Source: an uncultured Faecalibacterium sp.
Lineage (GTDB): Bacteria; Bacillota; Clostridia; Oscillospirales; Ruminococcaceae
Length of the DNA stretch: 24,964 nt
Reading direction: 5' to 3'
NCBI GenBank assembly: GCA_964370715.1
Contig: CAYJKJ010000027.1
Location: 1 to 24,964 of the forward strand
Part shown: piece after piece, positions 2,295-18,155 of the stretch
How the letters are laid out: each line of letters begins with the position of its first letter
Position numbering within the stretch: position 1 is the stretch's first letter
Position numbers and translations under genes: made by a program
Notes under the pieces: model-generated
What the model was told of the DNA's origin: nothing
Database searches by the model: none
The model's input: only the letters and a program-made list of their open reading frames with translations

Positions 2295-3761
2295 ATGGTT
2301 ATGCAAAATGTCGAATTTCTTATTTTAGTCACATTGGTTGTATTCTTGTTGTTCTCGCTTGTAGTTGTTTTTCTAACAAGATACAAAAAATGCCCCTCCG
2401 ACAAAATTTTAGTTATCTATGGTAAGGTTGGGCAAAACAAAGACGGAACAGCAAGGAGCGCAAAATGTGTCCATGGTGGCGCTTCCTTTATCGTCCCCGT
2501 TGTTCAATCCTATGCATATCTCGACCTAACCCCGCTTTCAATTCAAGTTGATTTAACAAACGCTCTTTCAAGGCAAAACATCAGAATAGACGTTCCCTCA
2601 AGGTTCACGGTTGGTATTTCGACCGAAAACGGAATTATGCAAAACGCAGCGGAACGCCTTCTAGGTCTTAGATTAAACGAAATCCAAGAACTTGCAAAAG
2701 ACATAATCTTCGGACAACTAAGGCTTATTATCGCTACGATGGATATCGAAGAGATAAACACAGACAGAGACAAGTTTTTGGCCGCCGTTTCAAACAACGT
2801 TGAAACGGAACTAAAAAAGATCGGTCTTCGCCTTATCAACGTTAACGTTACCGATATAACGGATGAATCGGGATATATTTTGGCTCTTGGTAAAGAAGCC
2901 GCCGCAAAAGCTATAAACGATGCGAAAAAATCCGTTGCTGAAAAAGAACGTGACGGTGCAATCGGTCAGGCTCTCGCTGAAAAGGATCAACGTATTCAAG
3001 TTTCAGATGCAGAATCTCTTGCAATCAAGGGCGAAAACGATGCACAGGTTATTATTTCTTTAAGCCATGCGCAACGTCGAGAAAAAGAAGCGGAAGCTTT
3101 AAGAATCGCTACATCCGCCGAAAAAATCCAAGCTGCTAAAGCTTTGGAAGATGCATATTCCGCCGAAAAAGAAGCCGAGCTTGCTCGTTTCGCAAGAGAA
3201 AAAGCCACGCTTGAAGCCGACGTTATCGTTAAAGCCGAGATTGAAAAACGCAAACTTGAGCTTGATGCAGAAGCCGTTGCGGAACAAACTCGCCGACAAG
3301 CAAAAGGGGACGCCGACGCTATATTCCTAAAGATGGAAGCGGAAGCTCGAGGAATTGAAGAAATCTTGACAAAACAAGCTGCCGGTCTCACCGAGATCGT
3401 TAACGCAGCCGGCGGAGATGCAAACGATGCGTTGAAACTAATGTTGACCGACAAGATGGAAAATCTTCTTCGCATACAAGTTGATAGCATCAAAAACATC
3501 AAATTTGATAAAGTTACCGTTTGGGATGGCGGTTCTAGCCCCGATGGCAAATCTTCAACCGCAAACTTTTTGTCGGGTCTTATGAAGAGCATACCCCCAA
3601 TGAACGATATGTTCGATATGGCGGGGATGAAGTTGCCGGAATATCTTGGAGAATCAAACAAGATCCAACAACCCTCTTCAAAACCACAGCAACTAAAACC
3701 GGCAAAACCTATTAAACCAACTACCGAAAAAACCGAAGCACTAGAACCCGGAGTTAAATAA
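2295..3761 (+). CDS. floT: Flotillin (SPFH/band-7 family), FloT/YuaG-like
   Basis: 488 aa. N-terminal TM/hairpin, an SPFH domain, then a long Ala/Glu-rich coiled-coil (EA repeats) and a Pro/Lys-rich tail. Size and architecture match FloT. Confidence 0.85.
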   Translation: MVMQNVEFLILVTLVVFLLFSLVVVFLTRYKKCPSDKILVIYGKVGQNKDGTARSAKCVHGGASFIVPVVQSYAYLDLTPLSIQVDLTNALSRQNIRIDVPSRFTVGISTENGIMQNAAERLLGLRLNEIQELAKDIIFGQLRLIIATMDIEEINTDRDKFLAAVSNNVETELKKIGLRLINVNVTDITDESGYILALGKEAAAKAINDAKKSVAEKERDGAIGQALAEKDQRIQVSDAESLAIKGENDAQVIISLSHAQRREKEAEALRIATSAEKIQAAKALEDAYSAEKEAELARFAREKATLEADVIVKAEIEKRKLELDAEAVAEQTRRQAKGDADAIFLKMEAEARGIEEILTKQAAGLTEIVNAAGGDANDALKLMLTDKMENLLRIQVDSIKNIKFDKVTVWDGGSSPDGKSSTANFLSGLMKSIPPMNDMFDMAGMKLPEYLGESNKIQQPSSKPQQLKPAKPIKPTTEKTEALEPGVK

Positions 3762-3855: not shown

Positions 3856-4416
3856 CTAGATCTCTTCAAACTCCATCTTTTCAAGATCGACAGAATATCC
3901 TCTGCCGTTGTTTGGAATAAGTTGTTCAAACGTTTTGCCGATATCTTCAAAAAGATACATCATCGTCATGGCTATAACCGCCCCATGTGTAACCAACACC
4001 ACTGAATCATCCTGCATTGCTCTTATCTTTTCAACCCCAGTTTTAATGCGCTCTAACACCTGTTTTCCGCTCTCACCGCCGGGGCATTGTTGATTAAACG
4101 TGTCTTTCGACCAATCGACAAACAGCGAATTTGTAGCAAGGCTTTTAAAAGTTTGGTTTTCAAAATCCCCAAAATTCATCTCTTTGAAGTCTTCGATAGC
4201 CTCATGTTGTTCAACTTGATACAACGTTTCAAGAGTTTGTTTTGTCCTTGTCATACCGCTCGTGAAATATCGGTCGGCTTTTGGATAGCTGATGGTTTTT
4301 TTAAGCTCTTCAAGCTCGGTAAATCCAACGTCACACACCACAGCATCGGTTGAACCACAAAACATCTCATCGATATTTTGTTTTGTTTTTCCATGTCTTA
4401 TTAAGTATAATTTCAT
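3856..4416 (-). CDS. cobC: Histidine phosphatase family protein (phosphoglycerate-mutase-like), probably alpha-ribazole phosphatase
   Basis: 186 aa. N-terminal LIRHGKT catalytic RHG motif; THGAVI histidine near the C-terminus. It is adjacent to cobO. Confidence 0.65.
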   Translation of the reverse strand: MKLYLIRHGKTKQNIDEMFCGSTDAVVCDVGFTELEELKKTISYPKADRYFTSGMTRTKQTLETLYQVEQHEAIEDFKEMNFGDFENQTFKSLATNSLFVDWSKDTFNQQCPGGESGKQVLERIKTGVEKIRAMQDDSVVLVTHGAVIAMTMMYLFEDIGKTFEQLIPNNGRGYSVDLEKMEFEEI

Positions 4417-4517
4417 TTTTTTAAAAATTGTTCCTTTCTCTCACAAACAGATATAAAACCAATCTAATCTTTATCTTACATAATTTTGTTTGTGGATTGC
4501 TTTTGTATTTCTAGCGT

Positions 4518-5033
4518 TTAAAATTCAATACCCTCTCTTGAATCAACACCGTCATTGTAGTAATGCTTAACCTCTTTTATCTCGCTTACAAGGTCGGCCA
4601 GTTTAATCGTTTGCTCTGTCGCTCCCCTACCGGTCAAAACAAGCTCGGTTTTCTCGTTTTTTTGTTCGATAAGCTGTTGTATCTGGCTTTGATCAACAAG
4701 CCCCAAACAAAGAGCAACGTTTATTTCATCCAAAACAACAACATCATATTCCCCGCCCTTTACCGCTAACAAAGCTTTGTTAAAGCCTTGTTGCGCTTCG
4801 GCTCTGTTGAGTTCAGTATTTGTTGAAAAAAGTTCAAAACTTTTTGAATAAAGTTCAACCGTTATATTATCAAATTTTTTCAAGGCTTTGTGTTCGCTTG
4901 TATCCTCTTGTTTTAAAAATTGGGCGAAATAAACCGCAAGCCCTGCACCCGCCGCTCTAACCGAAAGCCCGATAGCCGCCGTAGTCTTGCCTTTACCGTC
5001 GCCGGTGTAGACCTGTGTGAAGCCTTGTTTCAT
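4518..5033 (-). CDS. cobO: Cob(I)yrinic acid a,c-diamide / cob(I)alamin adenosyltransferase (CobA/CobO/BtuR type)
   Basis: VYTGDGKGKTTAAIGLSVRAAGAGL P-loop signature of the CobA family. I prefer the ATG at 5031-5033 (MKQGFTQVYTG...) because an AGAGGAG RBS sits 5 nt upstream. The ORF track's longer start at 5075 adds 14 aa with no RBS. Confidence 0.8.
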   Translation of the reverse strand: MKQGFTQVYTGDGKGKTTAAIGLSVRAAGAGLAVYFAQFLKQEDTSEHKALKKFDNITVELYSKSFELFSTNTELNRAEAQQGFNKALLAVKGGEYDVVVLDEINVALCLGLVDQSQIQQLIEQKNEKTELVLTGRGATEQTIKLADLVSEIKEVKHYYNDGVDSREGIEF

Positions 5034-5099
5034 CTCATCTCCTCTATTATCATCAAAATCCAAAATCATCTGCACCGTCTATGTATTTATCCATCATCA

Positions 5100-6161
5100 T
5101 TATTCAAAAATACTGTCATAATCATAGTTTAGATAAAAATCATAAACTTCGTCGAAATGTTCGACATAATTTTGTTTTGTTATCAAATGCTGTTCATTTT
5201 TCATGTATTCGAGAATATCATCATTTATTTCAGCAGAATAATGAGTTTTATCTTTATATAAATCTAAATTTGTTACAACATCATAAAGATCCATCATAGA
5301 AAAAAGCTTGATATTTTCTTGTTCAACTATAATGCTCGCTGCATATTCAATTGCTTCAAGTTGATATTCCAGTGTATTATTTTGGTTTAAGTTATCATAA
5401 TAAACCATACTGTATGGTGGTAAAAAATAATAAAATGTAATATTAGGGTTTTCATCAGCTAGTTGAACTATATTTTGTTGTATATTTTCATATATACGAG
5501 TTTTATCTTGTTCTAATATTTGCTTTATCTCAGAATTGGATTTTTCACTTCTGCTGTAACCAGACAATACCACTTCTTTAGAAAATGTATATTTTTCTTG
5601 CCATCGTCTGTAATCATCAAAATTGGTTATCGAAGCGCCTATTAGTGTATTTAAAATCGTTCTTCCCGACCCGTTTGCTAGGGTGTGTTTATTTAAAAGA
5701 TAGTTAATATCGTTAAGGTGATTTTCATCATATAAATAATCCGGATAGGTACTGTATCGCAAAGAATCTTTTTCAGCATTTATAGCTGATATATCTAATG
5801 AACGTACAATCATTGAAATGTCAGAATTGTAAAAAATCGCCCTACTTAAATGACTGTTTATCTCTTTATAACTCCCCCCAGCAAAACATGTCTTGATGCT
5901 TTTTACATCAAACAAATCATCCAACTGGCTCGCTTTAAAATTCTGGGCCATTGATGTGCCTGTTATTATTGCATCATATTCAAAATATCTTGCTATTCCA
6001 TTGTTTTGATACCGTTCCATATGCAACAAATACCCCAATTGATCAATTGGTGATCTATATAAAAAATATGGATCTATAATAAAATTTACCGTTATTATAA
6101 AAACCATTGCCAAATAAAACAGCAACACCACTAACACTACAAATTTTTTGCTAGTTACCAT
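5100..6161 (-). CDS. DltD-like / SGNH-like extracytoplasmic partner of the MBOAT acyltransferase
   Basis: Start MVTSKKFVVLVVLL (ATG 6159-6161) with a GAGAAAGG RBS. One N-terminal TM, then a ~320-aa extracytoplasmic domain with an AIITGTSMAQNF motif. It lies 17 nt downstream of the MBOAT stop, as dltB-dltD and algI-algJ pairs do. The ORF track's longer start at 6251 overlaps the MBOAT gene. Confidence 0.55.
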   Translation of the reverse strand: MVTSKKFVVLVVLLFYLAMVFIITVNFIIDPYFLYRSPIDQLGYLLHMERYQNNGIARYFEYDAIITGTSMAQNFKASQLDDLFDVKSIKTCFAGGSYKEINSHLSRAIFYNSDISMIVRSLDISAINAEKDSLRYSTYPDYLYDENHLNDINYLLNKHTLANGSGRTILNTLIGASITNFDDYRRWQEKYTFSKEVVLSGYSRSEKSNSEIKQILEQDKTRIYENIQQNIVQLADENPNITFYYFLPPYSMVYYDNLNQNNTLEYQLEAIEYAASIIVEQENIKLFSMMDLYDVVTNLDLYKDKTHYSAEINDDILEYMKNEQHLITKQNYVEHFDEVYDFYLNYDYDSIFE

Positions 6162-6178
6162 ATTAAAACCTTTCTCAA

Positions 6179-7684
6179 CTAAAAATTGAAATATATAAAT
6201 GTCGAAACCCCTGCAAAAGAAGATACCACCCAAGTTAAAATAAAAATACATTTAATAGCCTCAATATAAGTTGGCTTAAAATCTTGCAACTTTTCATTTG
6301 TATTTTTCATAGCTACTGTGCATAAAAGAGTTACAATAAATAATGTTATAAACAAAATCAATCCTGTAATAGGTATAGCTGTAACGTTTAAAATGGCATA
6401 TTCTGTAACACTTTCCGGTGCATTAATTAAGTCTTTATTTATCGACTCAAAGTTAAAAGAAAATATCTTTCTCAAAAACTCCCCTGCTGAAGTTAGCGAC
6501 TCAGCTCTAAACAACACCCACGTTAAGTTGACAAATAAAAATGTAATAACCCAATTTATAGCTTTCGGTATTTTGTTAACAACAGGGGATAATGTTCTTG
6601 TTAAAATGCTAAACAAACCATGTAAAATGCCCCATAAAATAAACGTCCAGTTTGCTCCATGCCAAATTCCGCTAACTAAAAATACTATAAAAATGTTTCG
6701 ATAAAGTTTAGCTTTCCCTACCCTATTTCCACCTAATGGTATGTAAATATATTTAGTAAAAAACCTTGTTAATGTTATATGCCATCTTTCCCAAAACTCT
6801 ATTATCGTAGTAGCTTTGTATGGTGAATTAAAATTCATCGGTAGTTTTATGTTAAACATATAACCTACACCGGTAGCTATATCACAATATCCGCTAAAAT
6901 CAAAGTATATTTGAATCGTATAAGCTAACATTACAAATATCGCATCGGTGCTACTCATTGCACTTATGTTGTCATGACCCCAGTTTGCAAACAAAGCAAA
7001 TGTATCGGCTATCAAAACTTTTTTTGCAAGACCTAAAGAAAACGCATATAATCCTTTGGAAAAATTTCCGTAATCAAACTGCTTTTTTTTGGTATCTGCA
7101 AATTGGGGAACAACTTCGCTATGTAAAACTATAGGTCCCGCTACTAATTGCGGAAAAAAAGTTACAAACAATGAATAATCAAGAAATTTGTATTTCGGAA
7201 CTGCTTTTTTATAACAGTCTATGACATATGACAGCTGCTGAAACGTAAAGAAACTGATACCTAGCGGCAACAATATTTTTTCCAAAAATATATCTGTTCC
7301 AAAAACCATGTTAATGTTATCAATGAAAAAGCTGAAATATTTAAAATAAAATAATAGCCCAATATTAAATAATAGCCCTAAACTTAAAAAAACTTTAGAA
7401 TAGTTTTTATTATCAGATTTCAGCATACTATTTCCCAAACAGTAGTTTACTAATATACTTGCCAGCATTAAAAAGATGTATGTAAAATTAAAATAGCCAT
7501 AAAACCAAAATGACATCGCAACTAAAAAGCTTTTAGACAGCTCATATTTTTTAAAATGGTTTAAAAGATAATATCCTGTCAATGTAGCGGGCAAAAATAA
7601 CAATACAAAAATATACGAATTAAATAACACTTTTCCACCACCTATAAAATCAAAAATGCCGTTCTCTATTATTATGTGTTTCAA
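6179..7684 (-). CDS. MBOAT family membrane-bound O-acyltransferase (AlgI/DltB-like)
   Basis: 501 aa, polytopic. Conserved FFPQLVAGPIV, WHITLTRFF...YIPLGGNR and SGIWHGANWTFILWG motifs, including the catalytic His region. The track's first codon is TTG (7682-7684) and no in-frame ATG lies upstream. Confidence 0.85.
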   Translation of the reverse strand: MKHIIIENGIFDFIGGGKVLFNSYIFVLLFLPATLTGYYLLNHFKKYELSKSFLVAMSFWFYGYFNFTYIFLMLASILVNYCLGNSMLKSDNKNYSKVFLSLGLLFNIGLLFYFKYFSFFIDNINMVFGTDIFLEKILLPLGISFFTFQQLSYVIDCYKKAVPKYKFLDYSLFVTFFPQLVAGPIVLHSEVVPQFADTKKKQFDYGNFSKGLYAFSLGLAKKVLIADTFALFANWGHDNISAMSSTDAIFVMLAYTIQIYFDFSGYCDIATGVGYMFNIKLPMNFNSPYKATTIIEFWERWHITLTRFFTKYIYIPLGGNRVGKAKLYRNIFIVFLVSGIWHGANWTFILWGILHGLFSILTRTLSPVVNKIPKAINWVITFLFVNLTWVLFRAESLTSAGEFLRKIFSFNFESINKDLINAPESVTEYAILNVTAIPITGLILFITLFIVTLLCTVAMKNTNEKLQDFKPTYIEAIKCIFILTWVVSSFAGVSTFIYFNF

Positions 7685-12022: not shown

Positions 12023-12688
12023 TTAATAATCAAGTGCATTGCTGCCTTTGAGTATTTCAATTGCACTGCTCGTTCCGAGCCTGTCGCATCCTAGCTCAAC
12101 AAAAGCATTTATATCATCAATGTTTTTCATGCCGCCTGCCGCTTTAACTTTAACGTTTTCTCCGATATGTTGTTTAAACAGTTTAACATCTTCGACAGTA
12201 GCTCCCGCCGTTCCAAAACCGGTTGACGTCTTGATAAAATCAGCGCCGGCTTTTGTCACTATCTCGCAAAGTTTAATCTTCTCTGTTTCGGAAAGATAAC
12301 ACGTTTCGATTATAACCTTTAATATATTATCTCCGCAAGCTTTTTTTATCGCTTCTATCTCCAAAAGAACTTTATCAAACTCTTCATTTTTAACGTCGCC
12401 GATGTTGATAACCATATCAATCTCATCAGCTCCGTTTGAAATAGCGTCTTTTGTTTCAAAAACTTTCGTTTCGGTTGTCGAATATCCTAACGGAAAACCA
12501 ATAACTGTGCAGATAGTTAGTTTGTCGCCAAAGTTTTCTTTAACCCGTTTAACATAGGAAGCCGGTATACAAACCGACGCCGTGTTATATTTAATCGCTT
12601 GTTCGCAAAGTTGTTTAATTGAATCAAAATCTGCAAAGGCTTTGAGCTGTGTATGGTCAACTCTTTTGAGTATGTTGCTGTTTTCCAT
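12023..12688 (-). CDS. deoC: Deoxyribose-phosphate aldolase
   Basis: VDHTQLK, VIGFPLG and the FIKTSTGF Schiff-base lysine motif. ATG at 12686-12688 with an AAGGAG RBS 7 nt upstream. Confidence 0.9.
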   Translation of the reverse strand: MENSNILKRVDHTQLKAFADFDSIKQLCEQAIKYNTASVCIPASYVKRVKENFGDKLTICTVIGFPLGYSTTETKVFETKDAISNGADEIDMVINIGDVKNEEFDKVLLEIEAIKKACGDNILKVIIETCYLSETEKIKLCEIVTKAGADFIKTSTGFGTAGATVEDVKLFKQHIGENVKVKAAGGMKNIDDINAFVELGCDRLGTSSAIEILKGSNALDY

Positions 12689-12744
12689 CAAAAGCGCTCC
12701 TTAATATTTTTATAAACTTACTCGCATATTTAAAATCATTTTAA

Positions 12745-14325
12745 TTATGCGGCATCTTGGGTTTCGGGGGTCGTTGTCGCCTCGGGAGAAACTGTTGCTC
12801 CCGAAACTTTGGTGAATCTCATATCATAATACGAAGTCTGTGTGCTGTCGTAGTATTCCCTTAATACCATCTCGGTGTCGTTTCTTGTGACAAAAATTCT
12901 GTCGTAGTAGTAGTTGTTTTCGCCCTCTGTATAGTGTAGCACCAATCGTTTGTTTTCAACGTCGACGCTAACTGTTCCGCTTATCGTCGATTCGGTCTGC
13001 CAACTTCCGGTTTCATATCCTTTTGGATCGCTGTCGTTTGGAACAAGATATTTAAGGGTGAACGTTCCATCTTCGCCAAATGTTAGGTATTCAACCATAT
13101 TTTGTCCGCTGTTTTCGGTATAGGTGAATTCATCCGACAACCAAGAACCGATAATATATTCCGAATACGGATTATCTTGATCCTCTGTCGAACCGCCCAA
13201 AAGCGGAGACACAACGAAAATAGCCGCAAGAACACCAAGAACCGCTACTCCAACAAATATAAGCACCGTTATTATGATAGATTTAACACTCTTTGGTTTA
13301 TCATCATCGCTATCGTCGTGGCCTCCTTGTTGAGGCATTCCGGCAGTAGGTGTTTCTTGTTCTCCCTTTCCAAAAAGTTTCTTTTTGGTTTTTTTGGTCT
13401 TTTCCTCTGCTTCAAGCTCCAAAATCCCTGTCATTCCCATATCTGCCCTCATGTTTGGTATAGTTTGGGTTTGGGAATTTCTGTTTTGATTACGGTCTTG
13501 AATAGGTTTGAGAGGTGTCGGTTTTAATGGGCGCATATCCCCTCTGTTTTGCCCTTGCATATTATACCCCGGTTGTTGTTGCTGTTGTGGGTGGGGCTGT
13601 TGGGGATGGCCTTGGAACTGCTGAAGCTGTTGATAGCCCTCCGGTCTGCCATGTTGTTGCATCTGCCCACCCGGCATCTGTTGCGGCCTTTGAGCCGGTT
13701 GCCCTTGCATCTGCTGGGGTCTTTCGTATTGAGGTGTGTTTGGAATCTGTTGTCCATTAGGCATCTTGGATTGAGCCGGTGGTCGTTGCTGTTGAACATT
13801 GCCCATCTGTTGCCCTGAAGGTTGTCCTTGATGCGGTATATGTTGTGTTGGTTGTATAGCGCTTTGTTGTGGGTTTTGGGGTTGTCCTTGCTGTTGCATC
13901 GGTTGTCTTTGAGGTTGAACCTGTTGAACAGGTTGTTGCACCGATTGCTGTTGCTGAATTGGTTGCTGTGGTTGTTGTGGCTGAGCCGGTTGTTGCTGAA
14001 CAGGTTGAGCCGCCTGAGGCGGTTGCTGAGCCTGTATAGGTTGCCCTTGTGGTGGCATCTGTTGGTAGCTATAGTTTTGTTGCGGCGCCATATTGTTTGG
14101 GTTTTGGGGTTGTCCGTATGCCCCCATATTTATGTTTTGTTTTGAACCAAATTCTCTTGTCGTTTGAACTTCGTTTTGATTAAACTGGTTTTGAACAGCA
14201 TCATTTTGCGCTGAAACGTCGTTCGCCTGATGATTTTGGCCGCCACTCTTGATGTGACCGCATATCGGGCAAACAACCTCATTTTCCGCCATTGGGCATC
14301 CGCATTTTTCACATTCGTAATTCAT
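12745..14325 (-). CDS. Zinc-ribbon membrane protein with a ~260-aa Gln/Pro-rich disordered linker, one TM helix and a C-terminal GxW-motif beta-rich ectodomain (lipocalin-like)
   Basis: N-terminal YECEKCGCPM...CPICGH (CxxC...CxxC). Extreme Q/P low complexity, then a Lys-rich stretch and TM SIIITVLIFVGVAVLGVLAAIFVV. Ectodomain has GSW...GSW motifs. The start is translationally coupled: its RBS overlaps the stop of the upstream DUF2752 gene. Confidence 0.75.
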   Translation of the reverse strand: MNYECEKCGCPMAENEVVCPICGHIKSGGQNHQANDVSAQNDAVQNQFNQNEVQTTREFGSKQNINMGAYGQPQNPNNMAPQQNYSYQQMPPQGQPIQAQQPPQAAQPVQQQPAQPQQPQQPIQQQQSVQQPVQQVQPQRQPMQQQGQPQNPQQSAIQPTQHIPHQGQPSGQQMGNVQQQRPPAQSKMPNGQQIPNTPQYERPQQMQGQPAQRPQQMPGGQMQQHGRPEGYQQLQQFQGHPQQPHPQQQQQPGYNMQGQNRGDMRPLKPTPLKPIQDRNQNRNSQTQTIPNMRADMGMTGILELEAEEKTKKTKKKLFGKGEQETPTAGMPQQGGHDDSDDDKPKSVKSIIITVLIFVGVAVLGVLAAIFVVSPLLGGSTEDQDNPYSEYIIGSWLSDEFTYTENSGQNMVEYLTFGEDGTFTLKYLVPNDSDPKGYETGSWQTESTISGTVSVDVENKRLVLHYTEGENNYYYDRIFVTRNDTEMVLREYYDSTQTSYYDMRFTKVSGATVSPEATTTPETQDAA

Positions 14326-14337
14326 ATTAATACAACC

Positions 14338-14712
14338 TCACATTAATATATTCAAAATATTTTTTATAAGTAAAGACGTTACCAAACAAACACACATAAT
14401 CCCTGCCGGTATTAAAAAATTCAACGACCTATCGATCTTTTTTATGAAACAATAGGTATTAAACACAACCAAAACAACAAGCCAAACCGCTGTTAAAAGT
14501 GGCAACGGATTTTGAAGAAACGATTCAACAAACCTAAAATCGAACAGCAGACCTACCGCAGTTGTTATCCCACAAGTTGGGCAAAAAATACCCAAAGCAG
14601 ATCTTATCACACATGGAAAAGAAAAGTTTCCAACCTTTACATAAAGACCGCAAACAACAAATGACCCCAAAAGAACCAACGAAATTATAAGACGTTTTTT
14701 TGTTTGTATCAT
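14338..14712 (-). CDS. DUF2752 family membrane protein
   Basis: 124 aa, 4 TM. Conserved CPxCGxT motif (FCPTCGITTA) typical of DUF2752. Confidence 0.6.
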   Translation of the reverse strand: MIQTKKRLIISLVLLGSFVVCGLYVKVGNFSFPCVIRSALGIFCPTCGITTAVGLLFDFRFVESFLQNPLPLLTAVWLVVLVVFNTYCFIKKIDRSLNFLIPAGIMCVCLVTSLLIKNILNILM

Positions 14713-14731: not shown

Positions 14732-15235
14732 TTATGACCTAAACATTGTCGCAAAATTGTCGAAATAAAATGAATCAAATCCGCCAAACGAATCATATAA
14801 AAACGGATCAACTGCAAACGAAACCATCGTTTCAAACGCTGCATAGGTTAGCGAGAAAACGATAGCTACAAAAACACCAAACAAAATTCCGATGATCCCC
14901 AAAATTAAACCGATAATCGCAAAATCGCTTTTTTGGCTTTTTCGCCCTAGAATACCAAAGACAACTGCCGGAATACCAAACAAAAATCCAGTCACAGCGG
15001 TAAAGCAAGATACTATCGAAAGCCCCCCTAAAACGAGCGAAACTATGCCCATCCAGTTTCTTTTGCTGTCTCTTATGTCAACCGGTTGAAACGGAGTTTC
15101 TGTCGCACTGCTTTGAGTTTGGCTTTGCGTGTCGTTTTGCATCATTGGTTCAGCTTGAACTTCAAGTTGCTTTGCGCAGTATGGGCAAACATTAAAATCA
15201 GATTGAACTTCCCTGAAACAGCCGTTGCATTTCAT
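14732..15235 (-). CDS. Zinc-ribbon + DUF4190 membrane protein
   Basis: MKCNGCFREV...CPYCAK zinc ribbon, a Q/T/S-rich linker, then a two-TM DUF4190-type hairpin (GIPAVVFGILG...IIGLILGIIGILFG). GGGAGAAG RBS. Confidence 0.7.
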   Translation of the reverse strand: MKCNGCFREVQSDFNVCPYCAKQLEVQAEPMMQNDTQSQTQSSATETPFQPVDIRDSKRNWMGIVSLVLGGLSIVSCFTAVTGFLFGIPAVVFGILGRKSQKSDFAIIGLILGIIGILFGVFVAIVFSLTYAAFETMVSFAVDPFLYDSFGGFDSFYFDNFATMFRS

Positions 15236-17729: not shown

Positions 17730-18155
17730 ATGAAATTTTGTACAAGCTGCGGAAGCCAAATGGAAGACAATGCAAATTTCTGCCCCGATTGTGGCGCAAA
17801 AGAAGAGCAAGCAACCGTCAATCAACCCGAAAGCAATCCACAACCCAGATATAACCAACAGCCAGGTTATAGCAAACAACCAACCTACAACCAGCAATCA
17901 ACCTATAACCAGCAACCAACCTATAATCAACAGTTGTCCGAGAATTTTGAAAAAAAACTGGGCGGTGTTTTGGCTCTTAGTATCGTTGCTATTCTTTTCA
18001 GCTTTTTGTTTGGTATAATTTCATTAGTTTTCTACTTCCAAGCAAAAAAAGCCGTCAACGAACAAGAGTATGCTAAAGCCGTTAAAATTTCAAGAATCAC
18101 AGGAATCATTGGTATTGTTATCGGAACATTGGTATTTATAATCAATATAGTGTAG
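17730..18155 (+). CDS. Zinc-ribbon protein with a Q/N/Y/P oligopeptide-repeat linker and a DUF4190-like two-TM C-terminus
   Basis: CTSCGSQM...CPDCGAK zinc ribbon. PRYNQQPGYSKQPTYNQQSTYNQQPTYNQQ repeats. TM hairpin LALSIVAILFSFLFGIISLVFYF...ITGIIGIVIGTLVFIINIV. AGAGGG RBS. Confidence 0.7.
   Translation: MKFCTSCGSQMEDNANFCPDCGAKEEQATVNQPESNPQPRYNQQPGYSKQPTYNQQSTYNQQPTYNQQLSENFEKKLGGVLALSIVAILFSFLFGIISLVFYFQAKKAVNEQEYAKAVKISRITGIIGIVIGTLVFIINIV

Follow-up and report, generated by a model that had tools for sequence, protein, structure and literature searches.

In a 24,964-bp window of the genome of an uncultured Faecalibacterium sp. (contig CAYJKJ010000027.1 of assembly GCA_964370715.1; "the window" refers to this whole stretch), the reverse-strand gene at 12745-14325 encodes a 526-amino-acid protein with a long glutamine/proline (Q/P)-rich low-complexity tract. 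Based on its open reading frame (ORF) and its homologues, this gene is a complete coding sequence for a bitopic membrane protein consisting of a zinc ribbon, a disordered linker, a transmembrane (TM) helix and a lipocalin-like domain. The frame is uninterrupted, with conserved domains flanking the tract on either side, and a GAGG sequence lies ~10 nt 5' of the ATG, overlapping the stop codon of the preceding gene. The tract spans residues 35-290 (reverse strand, 13456-14223 at the exact codon limits), with a core at residues 70-255 (13561-14118), as judged by composition, predicted local distance difference test (pLDDT) scores and FoldIndex. A first-pass annotation had assigned the same residues to positions 13458-14223, had described them as rich in Gln and Pro, and had noted a zinc ribbon on one side of them and a TM helix on the other. 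This description holds: we find 34% Gln and 16% Pro, and both flanks are confirmed by the Cys pattern and the structural model.

We identified a C4 zinc ribbon at residues 1-28 (14242-14325, reverse strand), with the spacing CX2CX10CX2C. The four cysteines (C5, C8, C19 and C22) show no variation in homologue alignment A2, and AlphaFold2 models the segment as short strands (pLDDT 83-86). The match to Pfam Zn_Ribbon_1 (PF13240) falls below threshold (E = 0.048; 13.9 bits versus a cut-off of 25); our assignment to the zinc ribbons is based on the conserved, paired CxxC knuckles ~10 residues apart and on the modelled ribbon fold, and binding of Zn2+ is predicted by analogy. The single TM helix lies at residues 349-376 (13198-13281, reverse strand; 347-376 in the AlphaFold2 model) and has a mean Kyte-Doolittle hydropathy of 3.16. 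On its N-terminal side, the sequence KPKSVK contributes three Lys/Arg residues; the C-terminal side has none and is acidic (net charge -4). From these positive-inside flanks, together with the four N-terminal Cys residues predicted to bind zinc, we infer an N-in/C-out (type II) topology, and hence a cytoplasmic location for the Q/P tract. Beyond the membrane, residues ~385-509 (12799-13173, reverse strand) would form an extracytoplasmic domain, which is modelled as an eight-stranded antiparallel, lipocalin-like (calycin) β-barrel that can be superimposed on lipocalin-like structures. The zinc ribbon, the TM helix and this C-terminal domain are all confident in the AlphaFold2 model. We did not detect membership of the C-terminal domain in a named lipocalin or NlpE family (NlpE E = 0.082, under its cut-off), the protein has no above-threshold match in Pfam and none in NCBIfam, and PDB sequence searches with a profile or with the single full protein sequence returned no match. 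We also considered, and rejected, identity as a zinc-binding anti-sigma factor (ZAS): the motif is CX2CX10CX2C rather than HX3CX2C, and there is no zf-HC2 match. No sigma factor was found among the ~10 neighbouring ORFs scanned against Pfam.

Within residues 35-290, 86 of 256 residues are Gln (33.6%) and 40 are Pro (15.6%), followed by Asn (20), Gly (18), Met (11) and Ala (11). Between residues ~80 and 250, Q+P accounts for 47-77% of each 30-residue window. The neighbouring genes in the window (n = 10) contain 3.1% Gln and 3.2% Pro, and the corresponding binomial tails for the tract are 4e-63 for Gln and 2e-16 for Pro; hence, the bias cannot be attributed to chance. The most Gln-rich 30-residue stretch in any other ORF of the window has 9 Gln, compared with 18 in the tract. 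AlphaFold2 assigned pLDDT values below 50 to the linker (residues 29-339), with a single four-residue helix (H41-44) as its only secondary structure. The tract has a FoldIndex of -0.31 and a fraction of charged residues (FCR) of 0.04-0.09 (0.04 in the core). The tract is therefore predicted to be disordered, as is the linker throughout.

The DNA of the tract had been described as degenerate CAG/CAA/CCN repeats. The richness in Gln and Pro codons is evident, but the repetitiveness was overstated: no codon occurs more than three times in a row, perfect tandem repeats reach at most 13 nt and exact repeats at most 18 nt, and Tandem Repeats Finder (TRF) detected only weak two-copy arrays with scores ≤52. 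We looked for a hidden periodic repeat and rejected it, since the order of dipeptides and tripeptides in the core is no different from that of shuffled sequence (|z| ≤ 1.7). Together, the short repeats and the shuffle-like order indicate that the tract is a matter of composition, not of repeats. The ratio of CAA to CAG codons is 62:24 in the tract and 92:30 in other genes, and this similarity indicates that the tract is ordinary coding DNA. As noted in the earlier annotation, an antisense ORF of 107 amino acids, 40% of them Leu, is present on the forward strand at 13822-14145. It lies wholly within the conserved sense coding sequence and is spurious, its Leu content being due to the reverse complement of CAA and CAG codons.

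To place the protein in a family, we used its TM helix and C-terminal domain as the query in an exhaustive HMMER search, which identified 63 cluster representatives as homologues, 51 of them at E ≤ 1e-10. The family belongs to Clostridia/Oscillospiraceae, is structurally coherent, and has neither a name nor a Pfam or NCBIfam model; its few named members are each a "hypothetical protein" from metagenome-assembled genomes (MAGs) of Oscillospiraceae. A 42-sequence alignment (A1) proved too heterogeneous to be scanned for patterns, and a six-sequence subset was used instead; this located two loci of the family in GTDB, one in a Clostridia MAG and one in an Oscillospiraceae MAG. All linker statistics refer to 50 full-length family representatives. 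The CX2CX10CX2C motif is present in 49 of these, and all 50 have a single TM helix followed by a domain of ~155 amino acids. Every full-length member has a linker at the same position, ranging in length from 77 to 546 amino acids (median 184). The composition of these linkers differs sharply from that of our protein: Asp and Glu make up a median of 24% (6% in the target), net charge per residue has a median of -0.16 and is below -0.05 in 43/50 representatives (+0.02 in the target), and Gln over the whole linker has a median of 3%, with the next highest value being 9% (28% in the target). Thus, the target has the sole Q-rich linker among the 50 representatives, and the others are almost always polyacidic. 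Since a long linker occurs throughout the family with changing composition, we conclude that the disordered linker is conserved and that its chemistry is not. Lys/Arg residues are in excess on the N-terminal side of the TM helix relative to the C-terminal side in 36 of the 50 members. Most members also carry a motif, G-[LIMAV]-[LI]-E-[RKQ]-[EQ]-[LI], 15-45 amino acids before the TM helix; a subgroup has KRKNALE[DS]S in its place. In the target, the motif is GILELEAEE (residues 300-308; 13402-13428, reverse strand), ~45 amino acids before the TM helix, where AlphaFold2 does not predict a fold. This pre-TM motif could serve for docking or form an amphipathic helix.

At 90% identity, the target protein is a singleton among 15 billion sequences, the window being the sole contig that encodes it. 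Searching a word index with a single sequence comprising the TM helix and the C-terminal domain gave no match, the contig index contained no exact record of the protein, and no relatives were recovered by a scan of genome contigs with the single protein, or by scans of metagenome contigs with the single protein and with an alignment of the window protein and its orthologue (described below). Relatives were therefore sought with DeoC as a synteny anchor, chosen because deoC lies directly downstream of the family gene both in the window and in two distant members of the family (L001 and L002). In this way, we identified a contig, L006 (GCA_964368445.1), whose DeoC is 84% identical to that of the window and which has the same gene order: L28, HflX, DapF, zinc-ribbon/DUF4190, DUF2752, target, DeoC, CorC. 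The orthologue in L006 is an intact ORF of 556 codons (3904-5574 of that contig). In that assembly (contig CAYJAY010000035.1), this ORF is split between two called genes: 4073-4819, a 248-amino-acid, out-of-frame reading of the Q/P tract that is rich in Asn, Arg, Ser and Leu, and 4855-5574, a 239-amino-acid C-terminal fragment. This mis-calling explains why protein-database searches found no close relative.

Between the window protein and its L006 orthologue, identity is 71% in the zinc ribbon, 89% in the TM helix and 75% in the C-terminal domain, and none of the three has a single indel column. In the tract, identity is nominally 49%, a value driven by composition, with 41 inserted and 13 deleted columns; outside the anchor motifs, the two tracts cannot be aligned. 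Motifs shared by the two proteins include TREFG (residues 56-60; 14146-14160, reverse strand), an island within the tract that is kept in both proteins when its surroundings are not, and "TGILELE.EEKT", which includes the pre-TM motif. The L006 linker is similar in composition to that of the window (32% Gln, 16% Pro, 11% Gly, net charge +4). It contains two in-frame tandem arrays, one of 8.3 copies of a 24-nt unit encoding QQPAQQPM (87% matches) and one of 4.5 copies of a 45-nt unit encoding QRQQGQGQPPQGQPM (92% matches). We asked whether these arrays are retained in the window tract, and rejected this: the best matches to the 24-nt and 45-nt units (19/24 and 29/45) are within the expectation from codon-shuffled controls. 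The length variation that had been anticipated among relatives is nevertheless present, with linkers of 349 amino acids in L006 and 326 in the window, ~54 indel columns, and the L006 arrays. These differences in length, together with the fresh arrays, indicate that the tract evolves by gain and loss of repeats. In two further contigs, the linker is not Q-rich, being rich in Ala, Ser, Pro, Lys and Asp in L009 (DeoC 74% identical) and acidic and rich in Asp, Ala and Pro in L007 (DeoC 72% identical). Hence, the Q/P chemistry is confined to a small clade comprising the window and L006.

We consider it likely that the tract forms the main body of a disordered cytoplasmic tether that connects the zinc ribbon to the membrane anchor, with the lipocalin-like end of the protein on the outside. 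Four observations lead us to this reading: the predicted disorder, the position between anchor and head, the free variation in length and sequence, and the conservation of flanking motifs. Features of P/Q-type tethers such as that of ZipA are found here, namely P/Q low complexity, predicted disorder and a position between an anchor and a globular domain, on what is probably the cytoplasmic side. As would be expected of a tether, length and sequence are free to change and the flanking domains are kept (77-546 amino acids across the family; 54 indel columns in the tract versus 0 in the domains). According to this model, the zinc ribbon would be joined by a long, floppy spacer to the single TM anchor of a type-II protein, and selection would maintain a long, non-folding and non-aggregating spacer with short motifs (TREFG and GILELE), not the sequence of the spacer. 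In the clade that includes the window and L006, the polyacidic spacer of most members would have been replaced by an almost uncharged polymer of Gln, Pro and Gly, in which regularly spaced prolines would keep the spacer extended and soluble. Length would change as units of 8 and 15 residues are duplicated in tandem, in frame, or lost, and point mutation would then scramble the duplicated units, such that the window represents the scrambled state and L006 has fresh arrays. If extended, a tether of this length could reach tens of nanometres. The protein could couple a ligand on the outside to an interaction of the zinc ribbon in the cytoplasm. We tentatively propose that it is a single-pass sensor or scaffold, in which the barrel binds a small hydrophobic ligand and the leashed zinc ribbon contacts a cytoplasmic partner.

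Several considerations weigh against a simple tether. The disorder is a prediction, and the AlphaFold2 model was built on an alignment of 9 sequences. The role assigned to the protein is putative, as are a zinc-ribbon partner and a barrel ligand. The unusual composition (~30% Gln, ~15% Pro, ~10% Gly) is kept in two species despite heavy indel turnover, suggesting that composition itself is under selection, which a pure spacer model does not require. Moreover, a switch from a polyanionic to a neutral linker must alter the behaviour of the linker near the membrane and the nucleoid, and "just a tether" may therefore be an incomplete description.

A conserved composition would also be compatible with a prion-like or phase-separating domain, in which case the linker would self-associate, cluster the protein into membrane-attached condensates or amyloid and so confer a switch-like or heritable state. 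The first-pass annotation had pointed to a resemblance to such domains in eukaryotes, and the resemblance extends to Q/N richness: there are 42 Q/N among the 80 residues at 75-154, which passes the Michelitsch-Weissman criterion of at least 30 in 80, as does every 80-residue window starting at residues 21-212. The low FCR of the core (0.04), 7-9 aromatic "sticker" residues, and bacterial precedents in the prion-like domain of Clostridium botulinum Rho (PMC4703818) and the condensates of Bacteroides thetaiotaomicron Rho (PMC13269538) point in the same direction. However, the resemblance does not extend to aggregation propensity. Pro makes up 16-18% of the sequence and is evenly distributed (residues 70-255 contain 35 Pro, spaced no more than 13 apart), stretches that lack Pro, Gly and charged residues are at most 9 amino acids long, and the longest Gln run is 5. 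PAPA-like scores, which are approximate because the method and its propensity table were re-implemented, range from -0.26 to -0.025 (mean -0.14), below the threshold of 0.05. With a Pro at least every 13 residues and a negative PAPA-like score, an amyloid prion is unlikely; weak, liquid-like self-association may nonetheless occur. The polyacidic linkers of the other family members could not act in this way, and the tract fits the "sporadic" Q/N richness seen on conserved disordered regions of bacteria (PMC6400439). Overall, we regard prion-like or phase-separating behaviour as unlikely. A narrower version, in which the neutral Q/P linker drives reversible self-association into a membrane-tethered condensate and occupancy of the barrel by ligand is read out as zinc-ribbon clustering, strikes us as distinctly improbable; if true, the protein would be a single-pass receptor of bacteria whose signalling runs through a domain of low complexity. 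A different function for the shared composition would be a multivalent docking platform, in which QQPxQ units, prone to form polyproline II helices, bind a specific partner in the cytoplasm, for instance an SH3-like protein or one involved in cell-envelope synthesis, and the repeats themselves would be the functional sites. The arrays of L006, with 8 near-identical copies of QQPAQQPM and 4.5 of QRQQGQGQPPQGQPM, would suit such a platform, as would the short conserved motifs within the linker. The window, however, has no recognisable copy of either unit beyond shuffle level, its local residue order is likewise that of a shuffle, and other family members lack such units. We therefore rate a docking platform as doubtful, and slightly more so than prion-like behaviour.

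The remaining explanations concern the DNA. The tract had been suggested to be prone to slipped-strand length variation, and a contingency locus would be one in which slipped-strand mispairing alters tract length at high frequency within populations. The in-frame arrays of L006, at 87-92% identity, and the difference in tract length between two species are compatible with this. On the other hand, a simple-sequence contingency locus is characterized by short units repeated in tandem, almost perfectly and over a long stretch of coding sequence, and we found no such array in the window, where tandem repeats (≤13 nt), same-codon runs (≤3) and TRF scores (≤52) fall short of anything long or perfect enough for frequent slippage. 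Imperfect arrays of long units, such as those of L006, slip rarely, and the 90%-identity cluster of the protein has no second member among the 15 billion sequences. Furthermore, the repeat units are multiples of 3 nt and would therefore not give on/off switching. The suggestion of slippage in this DNA is thus not supported, and we consider a contingency locus very improbable, marginally behind the condensate. We give hardly any credence to the tract being an assembly or annotation artefact, or non-coding. The DNA is of low complexity and lies within a MAG contig, and gene calling split the L006 gene in two, with one of the calls in the wrong frame. Nonetheless, the window has a single 526-codon frame with conserved domains on both sides and with codon usage that matches the genome, there is no repeat longer than 18 nt, and hence nothing to mislead an assembler, and an independent assembly (L006) contains the intact 556-codon orthologue. 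An assembly artefact, which had been named as grounds for dismissing the tract, is therefore contradicted by the data.

The target gene appears to be the last of a three-gene operon on the reverse strand, with gaps of 12-20 nt between genes and an order that is kept in L006. The first gene (14732-15235) encodes a 167-amino-acid protein with a CX2CX10CX2C zinc ribbon, a Q/T/S-rich linker and a DUF4190-type two-TM region; its orthologue in L006 is at 3012-3503. The second gene (14338-14712), separated from the target by 12 nt, encodes a 124-amino-acid DUF2752 membrane protein (Pfam E = 7.7e-11). A promoter-like site that matches at 11 of 12 positions is located upstream of the apparent operon, at 15323-15295 on the reverse strand. 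We also identified a third zinc-ribbon membrane protein of 141 amino acids, encoded on the forward strand at 17730-18155 (Pfam Zn_Ribbon_1 E = 7e-8), with a linker of QPxYNQQ repeats (TRF 18 nt × 2.8, 17877-17926) followed by two TM helices, and a weak match to the CLC_0170 family. Q-enriched linkers are present in all three zinc-ribbon membrane proteins of the window and in none of its other ORFs. Across six independent contigs (the window, in which deoC is at 12023-12691 on the reverse strand, and L001, L002, L006, L007 and L009), the family gene is directly upstream of deoC. Other neighbouring genes that recur in the more distant members L001, L002 and L003 encode adenosine deaminase, a DAGK/YegS-like kinase and a PrsA-like rotamase. 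The deoC neighbourhood is a conserved chromosomal context without an obvious functional link. Elsewhere in the window, a 383-amino-acid ORF at 5100-6251 (reverse strand) has no Pfam or NCBIfam match; it overlaps the start of an MBOAT ORF (6179-7684) by ~70 nt and may encode an uncharacterised O-acyltransferase partner.

Our analysis draws attention to an unnamed family defined by a CX2CX10CX2C ribbon, a hypervariable linker, a G-hydrophobic-hydrophobic-E-x-x-L motif, a TM helix and a lipocalin-like barrel. The two orthologous linkers, in which a polyanionic chemistry has given way to a neutral Q/P one and in-frame repeats continue to turn over, constitute a natural experiment on what is conserved in a tether. 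They also show that Q/P tracts can break gene callers, since the L006 orthologue was split, partly mis-framed, and invisible to protein-database searches.

The closest parallel to the proposed tether is the P/Q domain of E. coli ZipA, which PMC6904479 (citing Ohashi et al. 2002) describes as a cytoplasmic tether, predicted or shown to be unstructured, between a globular domain and a single TM anchor. As in ZipA, a Pro/Gln-rich unstructured segment on the cytoplasmic side would connect a small globular module to the lone TM helix. However, the ZipA tract is ~100 amino acids rather than ~260-330, and its arrangement is reversed, with an N-terminal TM segment followed by the tract and then, at the C-terminus, by a domain that binds FtsZ; the module tethered in the target is a C4 zinc ribbon. 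The two proteins are unrelated in sequence, and no role in cell division is suggested. The linker of FtsK is also Pro/Gln-rich and is a second example of such a tether.

With respect to the zinc ribbon, the target resembles Llmg_0524 and Llmg_0526 of Lactococcus lactis and TcaA-type proteins of Staphylococcus aureus in having an N-terminal CX2CX10CX2C motif on a membrane protein (PMC4628341). In the lactococcal proteins, this motif binds zinc, and the topology of the N-terminus has been addressed by prediction and PhoA fusions (PMC4628341). We rejected membership of the TcaA family itself, since the Pfam scan revealed no TcaA domains; the likeness is one of architecture only. The apparent operon is similar to llmg_0524-0525-0526, which encodes a two-TM zinc protein, a small hydrophobic protein and a one-TM zinc protein with a long chain on the outside (PMC4628341), in a comparison that is limited to layout. 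The middle gene differs, being a DUF2752 protein of 124 amino acids with Cys residues here and a Cys-free protein of 64 amino acids in llmg_0525 (PMC4628341). No Q/P linker is described for the lactococcal zinc proteins (PMC4628341), and the outside domain here is lipocalin-like. The modelled barrel is also similar to the periplasmic bile-salt sensor domains of ToxS and VtrC, at the level of fold only (9-13% identity); these proteins are proteobacterial, lack a zinc ribbon and a long cytoplasmic linker, and act with a ToxR or VtrA partner.

The composition of the tract had been called unusual for bacteria, which is only relatively true: bacterial N/Q-rich disordered regions number ~4.3 per proteome (0.15% of proteins), 60% of them Q-rich, in the survey by Harrison (PMC6400439), and P/Q membrane tethers such as that of ZipA are known (PMC6904479). 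Like the bacterial "prion-like" regions, exemplified by the N-terminal domain of C. botulinum Rho, the tract is a sporadic Q/N-rich disordered insert in a family whose disorder is otherwise conserved (PMC6400439, PMC4703818). Unlike these regions, it is Q/P-rich rather than N/Q-rich with an amyloid core, has a negative PAPA-like score, and is tethered to the membrane. We conclude that the tract is a further example of a known element, either a disordered membrane tether rich in P/Q or a disordered region that is sporadically Q-rich.

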